Shown here piece after piece: positions 1,868-62,462 of a DNA stretch of 64,000 bases (position 1 is its first letter; the number at the start of each line of letters is the position of its first letter). Location: assembly GCF_053078305.1 (NCBI RefSeq), contig NZ_CP166879.1. One strand, 5' to 3'. A program made the translations under genes and the position numbers. The notes below the pieces were generated by a model that had not been told where the DNA came from, did not search any database, and saw only the letters and a list, made by a program, of their open reading frames with translations.

Positions 1868-3565
1868 TCAAAGCAATAACGTAGCCTGTGAGGCGACTGG
1901 GGTGCGTTGGTTAGGAATGTAAAACGCAATTTCCGTTCCTGGTTCCAGGCGGCGGATATGCAGCCCCTCGCCATACAATAACTTCACGCGATGATGAACA
2001 TTCAGCAGGCCAATTTTATTGCCCGGCATTTCATTCGCTTCGACCCGCTCAATCACCTTTGGATCGATGCCGTGCCCGGTATCCCGCACCGCAATGCGTA
2101 CCCGATTGCCGCACTCTGCAACGCTGATGGTGACAACGCCTTTACCTTTGCAAGGCTGGATACCGTGGACAATGGCATTCTCCACCAACGGCTGGATCAG
2201 CAGGCTGGGAATGCAGCAATTCACCTCTTCATCAATATCATAGATAACCGTGAGCTTGTCGCCAAAGCGGGCCTGCTCAATGGCAATATAGTCTTTAATT
2301 TGATACAGCTCTTTTTTGATATCGATTTGCTCATCGTCTTTTAATTCAATGTTATAGCGCAGATAACGCGACAGATTAAAGATCAGCTGGCGAGCGGTAT
2401 CCGGATTCAGACGGATCGACGATGAAATAGCGTTCAGAGCGTTAAACAGAAAATGGGGATTAATTTTGCTTTGCAGGGCGCGAAGCTCTGCCTTATTTGC
2501 CATTTCACGTAGCTGCTCGGCGCGTGAAACCTCCAGTTGCGTGGAGATGATTTGCGACAGACCAACCGCCATTTCCTGTAATGACGAGGTTATCTGATGC
2601 GCGTGGCAGTAGTAAATTTTCAGCGTTCCGGTCACAACGCCTTTCTCCCACAATGGGATCACCAGCATGGAATGAATCTCTGGTGTGCGGTGGGCTTCAT
2701 CATTGTTTTTAATGATGATTTTTCCGTAATTCATCGCCTGACGGGTAGTCGGGCTAATGAAGTCATCGCCATTCTGATAGTTATGTTCACCCACGCCAAC
2801 ATAGGCCAGCACATGATCGGTATTGGTAATCGCCACCGCATCGGCGTGAATGTCATCGCGAATAATTTCACAAACTTTGCGTAATGACTCGCTATTGACA
2901 TGGCGAAACAGAGGTAGCGTTTTGTTGGCGATATCCAGCGCCAACTTGGCCTGCCGCGCGGCGCTGGCCTCTTTTTCGCCCTCAACGCTTTGCACCAGAA
3001 GCACAATAAAGCCGATACAGACGCTGCCGAGGATCATTGGAATCCCGATTTTAGAGACGATATCGATCCCCAACGCGGTAGTTGGTGCCCAGACAATCAC
3101 CAGAATCATGGTCAACGTTTCACACAACATGCCGCCGAGAATACCGACGCGCCAGCGCTGTGCTTTGGGGATTTTCAGGTTGATCCAGCCCGATATACAA
3201 CCAGCCAGAATGCTGGTGATAAAGCAGGGGATCGCCGTCACGCCACCGATATCAATTAAATAACGATGAATACCCGCAATCACGCCGGTAATGATGCCCA
3301 CCCACGGGCCAAACAGAATCCCGCCGGACATCACCGCGATAATACGTACGTTCACCAGCGAGCCTTCTACGGGAACGCCGGACCAGGTGCTGAAGAGGGC
3401 GAACAGCGAGAAAATGGCGGTAACGGCGAGCAACTCTTTCGGTGAGTGTGCCGACTTGTGCAACAGTTCGCGAAACAGGCGGATACGGATGAGAAAGAAC
3501 AGGCAGATAAGCATTAACGCTGCCCGATCGAAGACCGCCAGCAGCATGTTGAATATTTCGTGCAC
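1868..3565 (-). CDS. ypdA: Sensor histidine kinase (LytS-type, GAF plus HATPase)
   Basis: 565-aa ORF with multiple N-terminal TM helices and histidine kinase motifs; overlaps ypdB start. Confidence 0.85.
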
Positions 3566-54971: not shown

Positions 54972-56377
54972 AACTGGCACCGAACGTAAAACGATTACCG
55001 AAAGATAAATACACCGAAGCGGTTATTTTTGCGGGTATTGATGCTCACTCATTCGCAGAGCATTACATCATTGCACAGGCCAAAAAAGCAGGCGATCCAG
55101 TCCCTCCCGTTTATCTGGGGCGTTATCAGTTAAGCGAACTGGATAACCTCCAGATTGTTGATGATGGGCGATACAGGGCGACGGTGATACGCGCCGGAAA
55201 TATTGAAGAGCCGCAGCTGTTAACCATCGCCACGAAACTGGCGAGCGCCGGAGTCCAGGAGGCGCGGCTACTTTCTGAAAATTTCGAATTGCTGGAGGAA
55301 TGGAGCGACCAGCTTCCACGGCTTAGGGAGGCATGGGAACGCGGGGAAAGCCTGGTCATGAAAAAAATTCCCCAGCGAAAAACCACGCTACCGATGAGCG
55401 TTGGATCTACCGGATACGACACACAGCTTGATTACGTGGTAAAGGGGATTATTCCGGCATCGTCGCTTTGCAGCATATACGGGGCGAGCGGTTCCTATAA
55501 ATCATTCCTTGCCGGATCGTGGGCGTGTCACGTTTCCACGGGCCGCCAGTGGGGAGGCCGCAGGGTGGCGCATGGCGCTGTTCTCTATGTGGTTGGTGAA
55601 GGCGGTATCGGCGTTCCGCGTCGTGTAAAAGCCTGGGAGGTTGTGCACGGTGAGCAGGTGAAAAATCTGTATCTGGTAAACCGTCCCATCTTTCCGGCTG
55701 TCCCGCTTGATGTTGATGAACTGGTTATTGCTGCCAGTCAGGTGGAGAGGGAAACGGGTAAACCTGTTCGCATGATTATTCTGGACACGCTGGCGCGTTG
55801 CTTTGGCGGCAATGATGAAAATGACTCCCGCGACATGGGGGCATTTATCCGTGGTTGTGACGAGCTTAAACGGCGCACAGGGGCTACGGTGCTGGTGGTT
55901 CACCATTCCGGCAAGGATGAAACAAAGGGGGCGCGTGGTTCCAGTGCATTTCGTGCATCACTGGACGCTGAATACCGGATACGCAGGGAGGACGCAGGAA
56001 GCGAAGCGCTGGTTATCTCATGCACCAAAATGAAGGACGCGGAGGAACTCAAAGAGGCTGCCTATGATTTGCGGGTGGTGGAGCTTTTTACCGACGCTGA
56101 CGGGGAGTTAATTACGTCGCTGGTGGTGGTGGATAAGCCGCGCCCTCCCGTTGAACTGGAGCGCATCGAGGAGGCAGGCAACAAGACGGAAAACCATACC
56201 GCGCTATGGGGGTGCATCCGTTCACGCACACAGAACGGCGACAAGTGCACGATCCCGCTGTTACGTGACGATATGAAAAAGCTGGGGTATGACACAAAAC
56301 ACCTTAAACGATGGTTAGCCAAACTGGAAAAAGACGACGTGATCTACATTGACGGTGATGATGTAGGACCACTGTAA
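54968..56377 (+). CDS. Replication ATPase (RecA/DnaB-like P-loop, putative initiator/helicase)
   Basis: 469-aa ORF with Walker A GASGSYKS and Walker B IILDTLAR; followed directly by iterons. Confidence 0.65.
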   Translation: MKLAPNVKRLPKDKYTEAVIFAGIDAHSFAEHYIIAQAKKAGDPVPPVYLGRYQLSELDNLQIVDDGRYRATVIRAGNIEEPQLLTIATKLASAGVQEARLLSENFELLEEWSDQLPRLREAWERGESLVMKKIPQRKTTLPMSVGSTGYDTQLDYVVKGIIPASSLCSIYGASGSYKSFLAGSWACHVSTGRQWGGRRVAHGAVLYVVGEGGIGVPRRVKAWEVVHGEQVKNLYLVNRPIFPAVPLDVDELVIAASQVERETGKPVRMIILDTLARCFGGNDENDSRDMGAFIRGCDELKRRTGATVLVVHHSGKDETKGARGSSAFRASLDAEYRIRREDAGSEALVISCTKMKDAEELKEAAYDLRVVELFTDADGELITSLVVVDKPRPPVELERIEEAGNKTENHTALWGCIRSRTQNGDKCTIPLLRDDMKKLGYDTKHLKRWLAKLEKDDVIYIDGDDVGPL

Positions 56378-56580
56378 AAAGTGGGCATTAAAAGTGGGAA
56401 AGGTGGGCGATTTAACGTAATTTTAACAAAATCACCCACTTTCCCACGTGTATATATCCCAAAAAGTGGGCACTAAAAAAATACCTATGAAACAAGATGA
56501 TATAAATCCCAAACTTCCCACGTTGGACGAAGTGGGAAAACGTAAAAAGTGGGCGAAAAAAGTGGGTAGAGGTGGGCAAA
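56378..56580. repeat. Iteron-type replication origin of the satellite
   Basis: At least eight copies of AAGTGGG(C/A)A in both orientations within 200 bp. Confidence 0.6.
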
Positions 56581-56831
56581 TGACTCAAAAACACAGAGAC
56601 AGAACAGAGCCAAAATATAAAGCGTTAGACATGACAGAGCACGCTTTAAAGGTGGCAATCAGGGTAATAGACCGCCACACGCGGGAAGGATACGCGAAGG
56701 AACATCCCGACCTGATAAGCGCATTCATGACCACAGCGGCGGCAAACTTTGCCACGCTGACAGAACGGGAGATAGCCGAAGCGGAACAGGTAACAACCAT
56801 CAACGTTAAAACCGGAGAGGTGGAATCATGA
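56580..56831 (+). CDS. Hypothetical protein
   Basis: ORF 56448-56831 overlaps the iterons; likely start ATG 56580. Confidence 0.35.
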   Translation: MTQKHRDRTEPKYKALDMTEHALKVAIRVIDRHTREGYAKEHPDLISAFMTTAAANFATLTEREIAEAEQVTTINVKTGEVES

Positions 56832-57238
56832 CAGCACAGATAGCCGCTTACGGGCGGCTGGTGGACGACCCGCAGGTAAAACAAACCAGCAAGGGCACAC
56901 CGATGACGCTGGCGCGTATGGCGGTATCTCTGCCATGCAGCCAGGCACAGGACGGGCAGGCTACGTTATGGCTATCAGTGATGGCATTTGGTAAGCAGGC
57001 CGACTTCCTGGCTAAACATCAAAAAGGCGATGTTGCCAGCGTATCCGGCACGATGCAGGTAAGCCAGTGGACCAGACAGAACGGGGAAACGCGGCAGGGT
57101 TATCAGGTTATTGCAGACAGTGTAATCAGTGCCCGTGCTGCCCGTCCTGGCGGGAGCAGACGTACAACCACAGGCACACAGGGTAATCAGCCACCAGCGG
57201 GAGGCGATGACCCTTACGGTGACGGTATTCCGTTCTGA
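56828..57238 (+). CDS. ssb: Single-stranded DNA-binding protein
   Basis: 136-aa OB-fold-like protein with Gly/Pro-rich tail ending DDPYGDGIPF. Confidence 0.7.
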   Translation: MTAQIAAYGRLVDDPQVKQTSKGTPMTLARMAVSLPCSQAQDGQATLWLSVMAFGKQADFLAKHQKGDVASVSGTMQVSQWTRQNGETRQGYQVIADSVISARAARPGGSRRTTTGTQGNQPPAGGDDPYGDGIPF

Positions 57239-57248
57239 GGGGGTGACG

Positions 57249-57521
57249 ATGGTACATGACCGCATAGCGGAGGAACTCGAGGCAAAAGGCTTTTACCGGA
57301 GGGCGGCGGCGCGATGGGGTGAAGTTATGCAGCTGGTGGAGACAGACAAGGAACGGCATCAGGTTACGATGCGACGGCTGGAATGTTCCAGGAAGGCACA
57401 GAGGCCACCGGAGCCGCCGGATAACTTCGGAGACCTGAAAAAAGCAGTAGATCGCACTTATGCCGAAATGGGTATGGATGGTGTAAGCGATGAAATATGG
57501 CGTAATTACCCAGACAGCTAA
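57249..57521 (+). CDS. Hypothetical protein, possibly PerC-like activator
   Basis: 90-aa ORF (ATG 57249); N-terminal AEELEAKGFYRRAAARW resembles PerC family from memory. Confidence 0.35.
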   Translation: MVHDRIAEELEAKGFYRRAAARWGEVMQLVETDKERHQVTMRRLECSRKAQRPPEPPDNFGDLKKAVDRTYAEMGMDGVSDEIWRNYPDS

Positions 57522-57527
57522 TCAACA

Positions 57528-57549
57528 GCCGGAGAAATCCGGCTTTTTT
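57528..57549 (+). terminator. Rho-independent terminator
   Basis: gccgg-agaaat-ccggc hairpin plus TTTTTT; identical hairpin at 59802. Confidence 0.6.
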
Positions 57550-57562
57550 GTACCCAAAAAAA

Positions 57563-57598
57563 GCCCGATAAGTACAGGAGGCATCTTATCGGGCTTTT
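57563..57598 (+). terminator. Second tandem terminator hairpin
   Basis: gcccgataag ... cttatcgggc stem followed by TTTT. Confidence 0.5.
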
Positions 57599-57760
57599 GC
57601 ATATGAGGTTTTTTTGGTGCACTGACACACATGATCGGGGTAATCATTTCATAATTTGCAACACAACTCAACATCATTGCACAAAATGCAATCCTGATTA
57701 TAATCAGAGCTGGATGAACATCCAGTTCTGATTTTTTAAGTCAAAGAGGAATTTCTTACT

Positions 57761-57967
57761 ATGGCTGAAGAGAAAAAAGGCGGTGTTTCGGTGTACATAA
57801 GCCCCGAAATCGTGGAGGTGCTCAAGCAGCGCCACAAAAAAAACTATGAGGCTGGCGTAGCGGCTGGACTGGATCCGCTGATGACGCCGGAGCCGTCGAT
57901 AGGTTCACTTGTGCGCTCTTATTTACTTGCGGCGCTTGGGATGCATAAAAATTATGGTGGTGAATAA
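57761..57967 (+). CDS. Hypothetical protein
   Basis: 68-aa ORF with RBS agagga, immediately upstream of capsid-like gene. Confidence 0.4.
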   Translation: MAEEKKGGVSVYISPEIVEVLKQRHKKNYEAGVAAGLDPLMTPEPSIGSLVRSYLLAALGMHKNYGGE

Positions 57968-59022
57968 TGACAGTAAAAGCAATGGCACTTACAACTAACC
58001 AGCTTTTCGCGTACCTGAATCGCGGGGATATTGCAGAATTTAAATTCAGTCCGCTGTTTACCACGCTGTTTTTCCCGAACGTGGCGACCTTCAACACCCA
58101 GAACATCATGCTGGACACCCTGGACATTGAAGAGGTTACGATGTCAGCGTTCTGTTCGCCTATGGTGGGTAGTCAGGTCCAGCGCGATAAAGGGTACGAA
58201 ACCAGCACGATTAAACCAGGCTACATGAAACCCAAACACGAAATCGATCCAACAAAAACCATCATGCGCATGGCTGGAGAAGATCCGGCACAGCTTAACG
58301 ACCCTACCTACCGCCGTATGCGCCTGATTACTGGCAACATGCGCCGCCAGATAAACGCCATTAAAGCGCGCGTGGAATGGCTGGCGGTGAATGCGATAAC
58401 GACCGGAAAAAACATCATTGAGGGCGAAGGCATAGAACGCTATGAAATCGACTGGAAAATACCGGAAAACTGCATCATAGAGCAGGCCAAGGGTAAAAAA
58501 TGGTCCGAGCATGATAAAGATATTTACGATCCAATCTATGACATCGAACTATACGCAGATCAGGCAGGTTGCCCCGCCAACGTCATGATTATGGGCGCTG
58601 AGGTATGGCGCACGTTACGCAGCTTTAAAAAATTCCGCGAACTGTACGATCTTTCCCGTGGTTCAGAATCCGCCGCAGAACTGGCCTGTAAAAACCTGGG
58701 TGAAGTAGTGAGCTTTAAAGGCTATCTGGGCGATATTGCCCTTATCGTCTATTCCGGCAAATACACTGACAGCGACGGTACCGAAAAATATTTCCTTGAG
58801 CCTGATTTGCTGGTCCTGGGTAACACCAACAATAAAGGGCTGGTGGCCTATGGTGCGATTATGGATCAGGAAGCGGTAAGAACGGGCGCAACGCAAAACA
58901 TGTTCTACCCGAAAAACTGGATTGAAGACGGCGATCCGGCGATTGAGTACGTTCAGACGCACAGCGCACCGCAGCCGGTACCGGCAGATATTCGCAAATT
59001 TGTTACCGTCAAAATTGCTTAA
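57967..59022 (+). CDS. Major capsid protein homologue (lambda gpE-like)
   Basis: 351-aa protein sharing conserved blocks with lambda gpE (FxFxPLF, GYxKPKHE, DPxYRRxR, YDPxxDIExYA, VSxKGxxGDxAxxVYSG, YPKNW, GDPA, SAP); similarity judged from recalled gpE sequence. Confidence 0.65.
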   Translation: MTVKAMALTTNQLFAYLNRGDIAEFKFSPLFTTLFFPNVATFNTQNIMLDTLDIEEVTMSAFCSPMVGSQVQRDKGYETSTIKPGYMKPKHEIDPTKTIMRMAGEDPAQLNDPTYRRMRLITGNMRRQINAIKARVEWLAVNAITTGKNIIEGEGIERYEIDWKIPENCIIEQAKGKKWSEHDKDIYDPIYDIELYADQAGCPANVMIMGAEVWRTLRSFKKFRELYDLSRGSESAAELACKNLGEVVSFKGYLGDIALIVYSGKYTDSDGTEKYFLEPDLLVLGNTNNKGLVAYGAIMDQEAVRTGATQNMFYPKNWIEDGDPAIEYVQTHSAPQPVPADIRKFVTVKIA

Positions 59023-59033
59023 CGGGGGATTCT

Positions 59034-59369
59034 ATGGACACTCCATACATTGAGTTATTTGCAGGCAGTCAGCAGGTATCCACGACGCTGGTACATTTTG
59101 CCGCTGATGCTGGCGTTATTCAGGAATTTACCCCGCTGATGCTGGCGGACAATGGCGAGTTTAAGCCGTGGGATGGTCAGGAATCTGGCAAGGCTGTTTA
59201 TCTGACCTCGTACCCCGTGGACACGTCAAAGCAGAAATCAGCACAGTGTTACAAGACGGGGATATTTAATATCGCCGCCGTAAACTGGCCTGAGAGCGCC
59301 GACACTGACGCGAAAAAATGCGCCGCCTTTGCGGGTTCTGGCGTATCCGTTCAGCCGCTGGCGCGATAA
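59034..59369 (+). CDS. Head decoration protein homologue (lambda gpD-like)
   Basis: 111-aa protein aligning with gpD (TPLML, WDG, YKTGxF, WPE, AFAG), also with the bona fide D N-terminus at 63772. Confidence 0.6.
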   Translation: MDTPYIELFAGSQQVSTTLVHFAADAGVIQEFTPLMLADNGEFKPWDGQESGKAVYLTSYPVDTSKQKSAQCYKTGIFNIAAVNWPESADTDAKKCAAFAGSGVSVQPLAR

Positions 59370-59381
59370 GCAGGGGAAACG

Positions 59382-59795
59382 ATGGCAACGAATGAAAGCA
59401 TCATGGCGCTACCGCTGGCGAGTAAATTTAAAGCAGAAGCGCGGGCAATGGCTGACAGAGGTTTATCAACCTACGAGGCCGTATATCAACTCAACAAACT
59501 GGAAGAGCAGGACAAGCCGCGCGCTGATGCGATTATGGCGCTTCATGAACATAACGACTATCAGCCGCTGTTACGTGCAATGGCAAACGTGCCATGTATT
59601 AGCGTCGATAATGCTCGTGAAATCCTGAACATGACCATAGAGCAGGAGCGCCCAAAGGTTGCGCCGGAGCTTACCGCAGCCTTTGAAAACTTTATGGACA
59701 TGCACAGCCCGAAAGCCGTATCACCCGGCATGGCATACGACGGCAGAAACCAGGGCGATGAAGGCGACGTCGATCGCATACTGAAAACCATCTGA
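59382..59795 (+). CDS. Hypothetical protein
   Basis: 137-aa ORF between decoration-like gene and terminator. Confidence 0.4.
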   Translation: MATNESIMALPLASKFKAEARAMADRGLSTYEAVYQLNKLEEQDKPRADAIMALHEHNDYQPLLRAMANVPCISVDNAREILNMTIEQERPKVAPELTAAFENFMDMHSPKAVSPGMAYDGRNQGDEGDVDRILKTI

Positions 59796-59801
59796 CATAA
59801 G

Positions 59802-59824
59802 GCCGGAGAAATCCGGCTTTTTTT
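59802..59824 (+). terminator. Rho-independent terminator (duplicate of 57528 hairpin)
   Basis: gccgg-agaaat-ccggc plus TTTTTTT. Confidence 0.6.
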
Positions 59825-59856
59825 ACGGGTCCTTTCCGGCATATGGACCCGTTACG

Positions 59857-59868
59857 GGGCGGCGACCT
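59857..59868 (+). other. Satellite cos-like site (cosN GGGCGGCGACCT) in direct orientation
   Basis: About 60 bp (59825-59890) nearly identical to prophage cos 46155-46220, diverging in the cosB-proximal part. Confidence 0.7.
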
Positions 59869-60001
59869 CGCGGTTTTTCGCTATTTATGAGCTTTTTTCG
59901 GGTGCTGGTGGTGGTTTTGTTTTTCGCTCTATCTCTATGAATAAAAAGGGAAAGATAAAACCAATACACCAACCTGAAACATTACTTAAGTGGGGATATT
60001 G

Positions 60002-60544
60002 ATGAAATCGCACCTGATGAACAAAAAAAACATGGCGCAAAGCTGCCGTGTAAGTGCGACAGCGTTCGACAAGTGGGGAGTGACTCCCGTTGAACGTAAA
60101 GGACGCGAGGCTTTTTACGATGTTGCCAGCGTGATAGACAATCGGGTAAGCAATGCAATTAACCAGGTTACAAACGACAAAGGCGAGATTGATGATGATG
60201 AACTCTTACGAGTCAGGATCAGATTACTGACCGCCCAGGCTGAGGCGCAGGAACTTAAAAACGAGCGCGATCGCGGTGACGTAATTGATACTGAGTTTTG
60301 CCTGTACGCGCTTTCAAAGCTGGCGAGTCAGATTTCTTCAATCATGGACAGTTTGCCGCTTACCATGCAAAGGCGCTTCCCGCAGATTACTCCCGCTATG
60401 CTGGATGGGCTTAAAAGGGAAGTGGTTAAAGCCTGTAATGCCAGTGCCACAGTTGCCGACAACCTCCCGAAGATACTGGCTGATTACCTGATGGAAACTA
60501 CCGGAGACGTACCGGAGAAGTTGCTACAGAAGAAAGGCGAGTAA
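60002..60544 (+). CDS. Nu1-like small terminase / packaging-redirection protein
   Basis: ORF 59990-60544 (GTG); C-terminal region resembles lambda Nu1 (LTxAQAxAQELKNxRD, LSxxAxxIxSIxDxxPLxxQRRFP); N-terminal DNA-binding region differs. Confidence 0.6.
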   Translation: MKSHLMNKKNMAQSCRVSATAFDKWGVTPVERKGREAFYDVASVIDNRVSNAINQVTNDKGEIDDDELLRVRIRLLTAQAEAQELKNERDRGDVIDTEFCLYALSKLASQISSIMDSLPLTMQRRFPQITPAMLDGLKREVVKACNASATVADNLPKILADYLMETTGDVPEKLLQKKGE

Positions 60545-60724
60545 CAGACGCGCAATTATTGAACAAAAGTAAGGCCCGACATGAAATCACCCAAAAATGC
60601 CTTTTTCATGCGTTTGTATGTCTGACCTTTTACGGTTTCGATATTATAAAAAACAAATAGTTACGCTCGAGAGGTACCGACACGCATTTTTCAGGAAAAT
60701 TTTCATAAACAGATAAAAACCGCG

Positions 60725-60736
60725 AGGTCGCCGCCC
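60725..60736 (-). other. Second cos-like site in inverted orientation
   Basis: aggtcgccgccc is the reverse complement of cosN; flanks on the minus strand resemble cosQ/cosB. Confidence 0.6.
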
Positions 60737-60800
60737 CGTAACGGGCCATAATTCCAGGAAGGACCCGACGACACCAGGCTATCAGAACGATGAGGGCACA

Positions 60801-61082
60801 ATGACAGAAGCCGAACTACTGGGATTAATCCGCTACGTTACCGGAATCAGCCAGCAGCATGACGAACAGGCCACGCAGCCGGACAGCGTGACCGCTGAAA
60901 ATTATGCGCGTGTTGTTGCTGAGGTGATGCGCCGTGATGGTATCCAGCTTAATGATGCAGATATGCGCGACATACGGATCCGCGTTCTTGAAATGCTGGC
61001 CTACCGTCGCCGCGTGCAGACGTACAGGGAAAAAGCAAAAATAACGTACCAGTGGAAGAAGCCGGAGCGATTACGGCGGTAA
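60801..61082 (+). CDS. Hypothetical protein
   Basis: 93-aa ORF. Confidence 0.35.
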   Translation: MTEAELLGLIRYVTGISQQHDEQATQPDSVTAENYARVVAEVMRRDGIQLNDADMRDIRIRVLEMLAYRRRVQTYREKAKITYQWKKPERLRR

Positions 61083-61127
61083 CTTGCTGATATTCCCGAT
61101 AACGCAAAATTGCGCTCTGTCCTAACC

Positions 61128-61259
61128 CGTTGATATTTTCGGGAACAGCCAACGGCTGAGGCCGGAACAACGATTATCTTTCAGATAGTCAGAGCTACGA
61201 AATTTTCGTAGTTTAATTACTCGCCAGTTTATCGTTAACTCGTTGATATTTTCGGTAAC
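61128..61259. repeat. Two 19-bp direct repeats flanking a perfect 17-bp palindrome
   Basis: cgttgatattttcgggaac at 61128-61146 and cgttgatattttcggtaac at 61241-61259; palindrome ctacgaaattttcgtag at 61195-61211. Confidence 0.8.
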
Positions 61260-61587
61260 CTCAATTTGAGGAGATCGGAAACATAACCCTTCACATTCTG
61301 AATGGTTATAATGACCACTCAGACCATCAAGGCAACCATAACGAACATCGTTACGGTTGGAGCTTTTACCCCACTGGGGGGAAGGTGCACATCTGGATCA
61401 TCATTACCGTGATCAAGGGTATGTAAAACCCACCAGCCTGATTAACTGTTAACCGGAAAAAAGCCAGGTAGCCAATCTCGATATGGGGATCCCCATATCG
61501 ACATTAACGCCCCCTAGAACTGCGCATATCTGCATATAAAAACATCCACCAGCTTTATGACGGATGCCGCTCATCTGATAAATAATC

Positions 61588-61610
61588 GTGTATTGCAATG
61601 TGTATTGCGA
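61588..61610. repeat. Two direct copies of GTGTATTGC(A/G)A at the right end (putative integrase arm sites)
   Basis: Same 11-mer as the three copies at 49980-50032, same orientation. Confidence 0.6.
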
Positions 61611-61688
61611 CTCCTTTAAACGATAGGTTTGAGCATTCGTAATGTACTGTTTTTAAATTTTATTTTTTCCTGTCTTTTCATAAAAGCC

Positions 61689-62462
61689 ATGTATGCCGCC
61701 ACCATTGAGAGTGAGCTGGATACGCAGTCAGCGATGGATTTTATTCTGGGCGCGAACAGTCAGGAGCAGCGGGAAAGGCTGACCGGCTGGATTGGTGAAA
61801 TTGCCGCGTATTACGCCGCAGCACCGGTCCGTCTGGGAGGCGCAAAAGTGCCGCACCTGATGCCGGGGGACTCACTGAACCTGCAGACGGCTCAGGACAC
61901 GGATAACGGCTACTCCGTGTTTGAGCAGTCACTGTTGCGGTATATCGCTGCCGGGCTGGGTGTCTCGTATGAGCAGCTTTCCCGGAATTACGCCCAGATG
62001 AGCTACTCCACGGCACGGGCCAGTGCGAACGAGTCGTGGGCGTACTTTATGGGGCGGCGAAAATTCGTCGCATCCCGTCAGGCGAGCCAGATGTTTCTGT
62101 GCTGGCTGGAAGAGGCCATCGCTCGCCGCGTGGTGACGTTACCTTCAAAAGCACGCTTCAGTTTTCAGGAAGCCCGAAGTGCCTGGGGGAACTGCGACTG
62201 GATAGGCTCCGGTCGTATGGCCATCGATGGTCTGAAAGAAGTACAGGAAGCGGTGATGCTGATAGAAGCCGGACTGAGTACCTACGAGAAAGAGTGCGCA
62301 AAACGCGGTGACGACTATCAGGAAATTTTTGCCCAGCAGGTCCGTGAAACGATGGAGCGCCGTGCAGCCGGTCTTAAACCGCCCGCCTGGGCGGCTGCGG
62401 CATTTGAATCCGGGCTGCGACAATCAACAGAGGAGGAGAAGAGTGACAGCAGAGCTGCGTAA
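61689..62462 (+). pseudogene. Portal protein B, 3' portion (codons 277-533)
   Basis: From MYAATIESELDTQSAMDFILG... to the stop; joins the 49850 half in frame to give 533 aa; ORF-track N-terminal extension is satellite sequence. Confidence 0.85.

Follow-up and report, generated by a model that had tools for sequence, protein, structure and literature searches.

An inverted pair of cos sites, apparently of two specificity classes, around the small terminase gene of a helper-embedded satellite

The stretch of DNA considered here (64,000 nucleotides of contig NZ_CP166879.1, assembly GCF_053078305.1; hereafter the window) carries a satellite whose small terminase gene lies between two cos sites in opposite orientation. 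The layout itself is already published, as cos1 and cos2 of the island EcCICFT073, and the window island is a helper-embedded, TerS-type member of the same kind. The finding as it was first written therefore adds little, and its value is in the comparison. What is new is that cos2 appears to belong to a different lambdoid class, in the window island and in EcCICFT073 alike, and that the module bounded by the two sites undergoes shuffling and flipping at cosN. Neither point, cos2 as the cos of another lambdoid class or shuffling at cosN, came up in the literature searched, the coverage of which was incomplete.

There are exactly three copies in the window of the 12-mer GGGCGGCGACCT, the 12-nt cohesive-end sequence of lambda: one at 46187-46198 (+) in the cos of a lambda-type prophage, and the others at 59857-59868 (+) and 60725-60736 (-), on the two sides of the satellite gene. 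By chance 0.14 occurrences are expected, and not one of 100 dinucleotide shuffles had at least three matches. When the three sites are aligned, the likeness reaches past the 12-nt core. The prophage cos resembles cos1, and likewise cos2, at 74-75% across 115-119 nt each, and cos1 and cos2 form an inverted repeat of 72 nt (59826-59897 / 60696-60767), 82% complementary. Common to all three are a cosQ/R4 box (CGGGTCCTTTCC), the cohesive-end 12-mer (12/12), and an I2 region with TTTATGA. The sites begin to diverge about bp 45 past the nick, where R3 starts. A first-pass annotation of these letters had claimed that copies of the helper's cosQ-cosN segment stand on both sides of the Nu1-like gene and that they match the prophage cos in the nicking region and diverge towards cosB; both claims are borne out by the three cores and by a similarity that spans cosQ, cosN, and I2 before it splits. 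That the likeness is due to chance, or is confined to the 12-nt core, is already refuted by the shuffles, by the 72-nt inverted repeat, and by the retention of the sites in 55 related modules described below.

The cos of the helper prophage (46156-46375, +) is of lambda type, with cosQ/R4 at 46156-46167, the cohesive end at the position given above, and a lambda-type cosB that runs to the start of Nu1 at 46376. Nu1 (46376-46921) matches lambda TerS residues 1-98 (PDB 6HN7 chain B, 1e-59), and A and W lie downstream. The portal gene B is split: its N-terminal part stops at 49902 and its C-terminal part restarts near 61690. Between them, inside B and co-oriented with it, sits a PICI-type satellite of 11.84 kb (49852-61695, +), with TATG cores at attL (49852-49855) and attR (61692-61695). 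In-silico excision at these cores, joining 49855 to 61696, restores an intact portal ORF of 533 aa, and therefore the intervening 11,840 bp are an integrated element co-oriented with B. A perfect 21-bp direct repeat (49980 / 61588) was considered as the att core and rejected: excision there leaves the portal ORF broken.

The genes of the satellite run, all on the + strand like B, in the order int, alpA-type regulator, Bro/Ant anti-repressor, primase-helicase, SSB, capsid, decoration, 137-aa ORF, TerS, 93-aa ORF. By their PHROG matches the capsid is lambda-E-like and the decoration protein D-like. The 137-aa conserved ORF (59382-59795, +; PHROG 1999) stands immediately 5' of cos1, and the 93-aa conserved terminal ORF (60801-61082, +; PHROG 1561) is common to cf-PICIs. 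The element thus has the unidirectional int-alpA-(Bro)-pri-late layout, and the size of about 10-20 kb, by which PICIs are recognized, and it is syntenic with EcCICFT073 and with the island at the cspD/clpS site of strain SCU-106.

Satellites inside lambda late genes, B included, make up a class already described, the helper-embedded satellites, in a preprint by Tommasini, Mageeney & Williams (bioRxiv 10.1101/2022.07.18.500453), and the window island belongs to it. The likeness takes in the co-oriented insertion in B, the restoration of the gene by excision, and C4 and isrK RNAs in the Bro zone. In the window a doubled motif, GTGTATTGCA-A-TGTGTATTGC, is found near both satellite ends. The same text gives the example 11capE as lacking terS, unlike the window island, and its treatment of cos sites, in the part available, is limited to a remark on a shared cos-like segment.

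The gene between the two sites (60002-60544, +; 180 aa) is, judged by its sequence, a full-length TerS of the Nu1 family, closest to gp1 of phage N15, and not an Rpp protein. The first-pass annotation had called it a small terminase, and this stands. Pfam Phage_Nu1 (PF07471) covers residues 33-149 at 2e-22, and PHROG 57 matches at 1e-51. Over 179 aa the protein is 36% identical to the prophage Nu1, and over 162 aa, with the N-terminal DNA-binding region included, 46% identical to N15 gp1. In the Nu1/gp1 family the N-terminal 44 residues form the DNA-binding domain, and over these the identity to N15 gp1 is about 64% by manual count. The C-terminal part of lambda Nu1 binds TerL. Alignments of the satellite protein with lambda-type Nu1, phage 21 gp1, and N15 gp1 extend to the C-terminus, and in its last 45 residues the identity is about 40%, again by manual count, so that its C-terminus may or may not suit lambda gpA. 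Among 50,697 phage records the nearest relatives are all below 60% identity, N15 gp1 being the closest, so the gene represents a satellite lineage of TerS.

An Rpp identity for this gene was considered and set aside. Rpp proteins of PICIs are 139-154 aa long and form a heterodimer with the helper TerS; the window gene fits neither the size nor the family. A PDB search allowing E up to 10 did not return RppC (6HLK), and BLASTP showed no likeness to RppA. The 137-aa ORF, tried as an alternative Rpp, has no PDB match either. A search of NCBIfam returned nothing for the satellite TerS, Nu1, the 137-aa ORF, or the 93-aa ORF. The window island is thus a cos satellite of TerS type, rather than Rpp type, with an N15-like DNA-binding domain. 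Some other E. coli PICIs encode TerS (IHE3034 and 18098), and both failed to transfer under the conditions used (PMC6092414); I found no experimentally characterized TerS-type island in the literature searched.

There is a familiar precedent for a satellite that brings its own TerS. In the pac-type SaPIs of Staphylococcus aureus, as outlined in PMC6092414 and 10.1101/2022.09.08.507074, satellite TerS together with helper TerL recognizes a satellite-specific site. The window satellite is like the SaPIs in encoding its own TerS homologue, which would here be paired with the helper TerL. It is unlike those pac/headful elements in that its module is a cos system, carries a second cos of a phage class, and has no Ppi-like inhibitor identified in it.

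The first site, cos1, has a cosQ/R4 box, CGGGTCCTTTCC, at 59826-59837 (+), identical at 12/12 positions to the annotated R4 of phage 21. The exact cohesive-end 12-mer follows at 59857-59868, and then, at 59904-59921 (+), an R3-equivalent, GCTGGTGGTGGTTTTGTT, at bp 48-65 from the nick. This box, a variant of N15 R3, is kept in all TerS-type islands. Murialdo and Feiss (2022, PMC9026076) placed R3-PICI at the same bp 48-65 and remarked on the N15-like architecture; they analysed cos1 alone and cos2 goes unmentioned. They give the R3-N15 interval as bp 48-60 (PMC9026076), and in the N15 cos I find GGTTGTTGTTTAAT at bp 50-63, within or adjacent to that interval. Several positions of the cos1 box depart from N15 R3, which fits a TerS N-terminus that is related to that of N15 but not identical. 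In its R3-equivalent and in its TerS N-terminus the satellite therefore resembles the N15 system, with its single R3.

Past cosQ-cosN-I2, from about bp 45, nothing in the phage collection matches cos1 at the DNA level. The cosB of cos1 is thus private, and the site has the form expected of a PICI cos: a helper-like cosQ and cosN and a non-helper cosB, placed 5' of a packaging-specificity gene. The conservation profile of cosB1 gives no binding boxes because the TerS-type islands sampled are too alike. An inverted R2-like box at 59956-59973 was considered and dropped: a repeat search of that segment gave no inverted repeat, and the highest-scoring 13-nt inverted pair of cosB1 sits elsewhere, with a score reached by 14 of 300 shuffles. 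A helper-shared cosN combined with private cosB and TerS had been read in the first-pass annotation as the logic of a cos-packaged satellite. That reading is supported, and it fits the published Gram-negative cos PICIs (PMC6092414, PMC6739421, PMC9026076).

The second site, cos2, lies on the - strand and, as far as its letters allow one to judge, is a complete cos with the specificity class of phage 21. When 60546-60790 is reverse-complemented, it aligns with the cos of that phage at about 80% along about 170 nt. With the elements of phage 21 taken as annotated in M81255 and OL657228, the site reads from right to left as follows: the cosQ/R4 box CGGGTCCTTCCT at 60756-60767 (10/12 to phage 21 R4), the cohesive end at 60725-60736 (12/12), I2 (13/15), the R3 box ATGCGTGTCGGTACCT at 60672-60687 (13/16), I1, the equivalent of the IHF site, at 60651-60665 (12/15), the R2 box at 60614-60629 (13/16; in orientation opposite to R3 and R1), and the R1 box TTTCATGTCGGGCCTT at 60573-60588 (16/16). 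Order, orientation, and spacing are those of phage 21, with one 1-nt indel. On the same R boxes of phage 21 the lambda-type cos of the prophage scores 9-11/16.

Since the match to phage 21 extends across the cosB elements, cos2 is a site of its own rather than a second copy of cos1. The first-pass annotation had called it an inverted duplicate, and of this description the inverted orientation stands and the duplication does not: the cosB side of cos2 is a different, phage-21-type sequence. The cosQ-side arm of cos2 is unlike phage 21. It is of the type found in PhiR12 phages, as it is in cos2 of EcCICFT073, so a PhiR12-type cosQ arm and a 21-type cosB arm have been put together, and the arms reassort at cosN. 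Unlike the cos sites of phages 21 and N15, cos2 and cos1 do not adjoin the terminase genes of those phages.

On the function of a second cos there is work on EcCICFT073, the best-studied relative, where both sites have been deleted; both are functional there, and cos1 is the main one. With cos1 deleted, lambda and phi80 transfer the island less, and the transfer that remains relies on cos2; loss of cos2 leaves lambda and phi80 transfer slightly or significantly higher; and loss of both abolishes transfer (Fillol-Salom et al. 2018, PMC6092414). Each site, when cloned, renders a plasmid transferable (PMC6092414). The complex of RppA with the helper TerS recognizes the cosB of cos1 (Fillol-Salom et al. 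2019, PMC6739421). Because deletion of cos2 raises lambda and phi80 transfer, cos2 is a cost with those helpers. The authors posed the reason for two cos sites as an open question, and they found no phage cosB in either site, in a comparison with lambda, phi80, and prophage 4 only. The first-pass annotation had left the inverted copy unexplained, which was fair, because the published work likewise leaves its role open.

A wider comparison gives a different answer about cosB. In the CFT073 region (L003) cos1 at 2559 (+) and cos2 at 3298 (-) stand around the 144-aa rppA, inverted relative to each other just as the window pair is. Over 179 nt, a length that takes in cosB, this cos2 is 93% identical to the cos of PhiR12-type lambdoid phages. 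Prophage 4, the resident helper, has a 21-type cos, in agreement with PMC9026076. It might be supposed that cos2 is there to match the cosB of the resident helper, and this was rejected in both cases: in the window the helper is of lambda type and cos2 of 21 type, and in CFT073 the prophage 4 cos is of 21 type and cos2 of PhiR12 type.

The two islands are otherwise built alike. Both have capsid, decoration, 137-aa ORF, cos1, a packaging-specificity gene, cos2, and 93-aa ORF; in both the pair is +/- inverted, cosQ and cosN are of lambda type at each site, and the cosB of cos1 is not that of the helper. They differ in the gene, a 180-aa TerS of Nu1/N15-gp1 type in the window and a 144-aa Rpp adaptor in EcCICFT073; in cosB1, which is of GGTGGTGGTTTTG type in the window and has GGTGACACCACCACCAC in EcCICFT073; and in cos2, which is of phage 21 class in the one and of PhiR12 class in the other.

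How general the arrangement is can be judged from 80 IMG/VR loci, collected with the 137-aa ORF as anchor. They contain 52 modules with two cores, to which the window, SCU-106, and CFT073 add three, for 55 in all. The cosN pair is +/- in 55/55, with no case of direct orientation. Some modules have the 180-aa TerS between the cores, which are then about 867 bp apart; others have RppA/B (739 or 759 bp) or no gene at all (524 or 530 bp). The type of cosB1 strictly tracks the type of the gene, TerS or Rpp. The classes of cosB2 do otherwise: they are shuffled among islands that are similar in other respects, and comprise 21-like (the window, L008, and L013), PhiR12-like, one with the N15 R3 box, and two others.

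The claim that every type of cos2 is clearly phage-like would be too strong, and holds in part. Types 0 and 6 resemble phages of lambda/PhiR5 or SerU type through R3/I1 only, at 73-82%, and type 5 has no BLAST match past bp 42, yet contains an exact N15 R3 14-mer at bp 50. About 10 further islands with sufficient sequence have no cos2, so the site is dispensable in nature; in several of them the 93-aa ORF comes straight after the stop of terS. The gene-less 524-bp module is present in both orientations in different islands. Two islands (L016 and L017) have co-linear flanks, and in them the 512 nt between the cores are 99.6% identical only if one of them is reversed; the point of exchange falls within a perfectly shared stretch of 25 nt, CCGTTACGGGGCGGCGACCTCGCG, that includes cosN.

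I propose, as the reading I consider rather probable, that the region is a dual-specificity packaging module of a PICI-type satellite, in which cos1 serves with the satellite's own TerS and cos2 is an accessory entry site of another class. The module's anatomy, its homologies, and its pattern across the family are observed; from these I infer the steps that follow. In cos1, a lambda-family cosQ and cosN, cuttable by the helper TerL, would be joined to a private cosB. The satellite TerS would bind cosB1 through its N-terminal domain and recruit the helper TerL through its Nu1-like C-terminal part, and nicking at cosN1 would then lead to packaging of satellite concatemers rightwards. Redirection would thus be by replacement of TerS, rather than by the adaptor mechanism of Rpp. 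The other site, cos2, may be cut directly by terminases of phage 21 type, which would package leftwards and give the satellite a broader range of helpers. If cos2 is indeed a second entry point, then the helper range of an island should be predictable from its two cosB classes.

This reading would also give a rationale for the inversion, in which the two sites face each other with their cosB sides inward. In lambda, termination of packaging requires that cosQ lie upstream of cosN along the direction of travel, and because of this neither cos should end packaging begun at the other, so that complete units would be packaged. Moreover, recombination between inverted sites, or cutting and rejoining at them, would flip the terS segment without deleting it. 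Cutting at both sites would produce a fragment whose two ends are the same left cohesive end, and which could be rejoined either way. Rejoining of such a fragment would account both for the flips and for arms that reassort exactly at cosN; short-homology recombination accounts for them too.

Against the dual-specificity reading, cos2 costs EcCICFT073 transfer with lambda and phi80, it mismatches the resident helper in both cases examined, and it is missing in about 10 islands; the failed transfer of the two TerS-encoding E. coli PICIs, and the uniformity of cosB1 that hides any binding boxes, count against the reading as well. The three points on cos2 also speak for a functionless scar, left by repeated recombination between satellites and lambdoid phages or by exchange of cohesive ends at cosN, with the inversion making the scar harmless; the shuffling of cosB classes, and the meeting of a PhiR12-type and a 21-type arm exactly at cosN, favor it as well. 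Against a scar, cos2 has kept its cosN exactly, its cosQ nearly so, and its spacing. The R boxes are better preserved against phage 21 than the spacers (R1 at 16/16, compared with 15/27 for the spacer between R2 and R1 and 13/21 for the segment past R1). The cloned cos2 of EcCICFT073 supports plasmid transfer, moreover, and the residual transfer after cos1 deletion needs it (PMC6092414). I consider the scar unlikely on these grounds. A different way to account for the cost is to suppose that cos2 is aimed at other phages, as a decoy, a site of abortive nicking, or the origin of head-on collisions on multicopy satellite DNA, lowering the packaging of competing or helper phages. Its apparently complete phage-class cosB would be an expected target for unmodified phage TerS, and the rise, rather than fall, in lambda and phi80 transfer of EcCICFT073 when cos2 is deleted (PMC6092414) fits a role beyond the island's own transfer. 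But the interference seen with EcCICFT073 has been mapped to Rpp (PMC6739421), island genomes packaged from cos2 should still be complete, so that the site is not obviously abortive, and the class of the resident helper differs from that of cos2 in both cases examined. Such a device seems to me quite improbable.

It would be more of a stretch to regard the inverted pair as a programmed switch that turns satellite packaging on and off by flipping the terS cassette. The 524-bp cassette does occur in both orientations across islands, and the breakpoints fall in the 25-nt stretch around cosN that the islands share, but the flipped cassettes are gene-less only. Wherever there is a gene it is co-oriented with the island operon, in 39/39 cassettes of TerS type and in all of Rpp type. 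No invertase is adjacent in the window, and the perfect shared repeat is merely about 25 nt. I give a switch very little credence.

The dual-specificity reading can be extended from one island to the family, and I do so tentatively, as a possibility that falls short of being probable. The module may be a cos-bounded specificity cassette of enterobacterial cos-type satellites, in which a private cos, matched to TerS or Rpp, is combined with an inverted cos copied from a lambdoid phage of a different packaging class (21, PhiR12, N15, or others), so that each satellite is open to two classes of helper. The halves would reassort exactly at cosN, possibly through cutting by terminase and rejoining of cohesive ends. 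If true, this would explain why certain PICIs carry two cos sites, a question raised in the published work.

A few minor features of the region may be mentioned. A scan for promoters and terminators gave no excess over shuffle expectation. On either strand it marks the cosN core itself as terminator-like; I put this down to the GC-rich, symmetric core with a run of T behind it and treat the call as an artefact. A terminator-like GC hairpin with a T-run lies at 59802-59823 (+), between the 137-aa ORF and cosQ1, and the same 22-mer is repeated identically at 57528-57549. Finally, four satellite units amount to 47.4 kb, near the length of one lambda genome.

The lambda-type prophage has its portal gene, B, split by the satellite (49852-61695), and when the two flanks are joined in silico at the TATG cores, as they would be upon excision, a portal protein of 533 aa is regained. 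There is therefore no helper portal protein until the satellite leaves. The element is a helper-embedded satellite (HES).

Just inside each end of the island lies one copy of a perfect 21-bp direct repeat (49980-50000 and 61588-61608), built from a doubled motif, GTGTATTGCA-A-TGTGTATTGC, and an additional copy of GTGTATTGCAA is found near 50021. For HES integrases, a doubled motif in attP has been reported, of which this repeat is probably the counterpart. As a candidate for the crossover site, the 21-bp repeat was rejected. Between the 93-aa ORF and attR there is another direct repeat, of 45 nt (61123-61167 and 61236-61280; 73% identity, 113-bp spacing), which may contain sites where recombination proteins bind.

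In related islands, the two inverted cos cores flank a 524-bp cassette that contains no gene, with a cosB of the N15-R3-box type at one side and one of the PhiR12 type at the other. The cassette lies in either orientation, depending on the island: L016 has it opposite to L017, and L025, L033 and L034 have it opposite to L019, L024 and L032. The cos2 of EcCICFT073, the reference island of E. coli CFT073 (L003:3095-3345), is a PhiR12-type phage cos (93% over 179 nt); prophage 4, the resident helper in that strain, has a phage-21-type cos (L003:39700-39935).

Capsid-forming PICIs also end with the 93-aa ORF that is terminal in the family of the window's island, as in E. coli O157:H7 H2495 (L002:6015-6296). 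In these elements, the large terminase is followed directly by the ORF, with no intervening cos2. At 57967-59369 the window satellite itself encodes a major capsid protein of the lambda E type (351 aa) and a D-like decoration protein (111 aa), although the helper prophage has both proteins as well. Two identical copies of a 22-nt hairpin plus T-run, GCCGGAGAAATCCGGCTTTTTT, stand one ahead of this capsid block (57528-57549) and the other immediately ahead of the cos1 cosQ (59802-59823). They are putative terminators and may insulate the packaging module.

Elsewhere in the satellite, Rfam finds isrK (66 bits) and C4 antisense RNA (77.6 bits) adjoining in the Bro zone (53558-53743); these are P4-like immunity RNA elements. 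Directly downstream of the primase-helicase gene, AAAAAGTGGGCA occurs as three to four direct repeats spaced by about 84 bp (56374-56566), probably the iterons of a replication origin.
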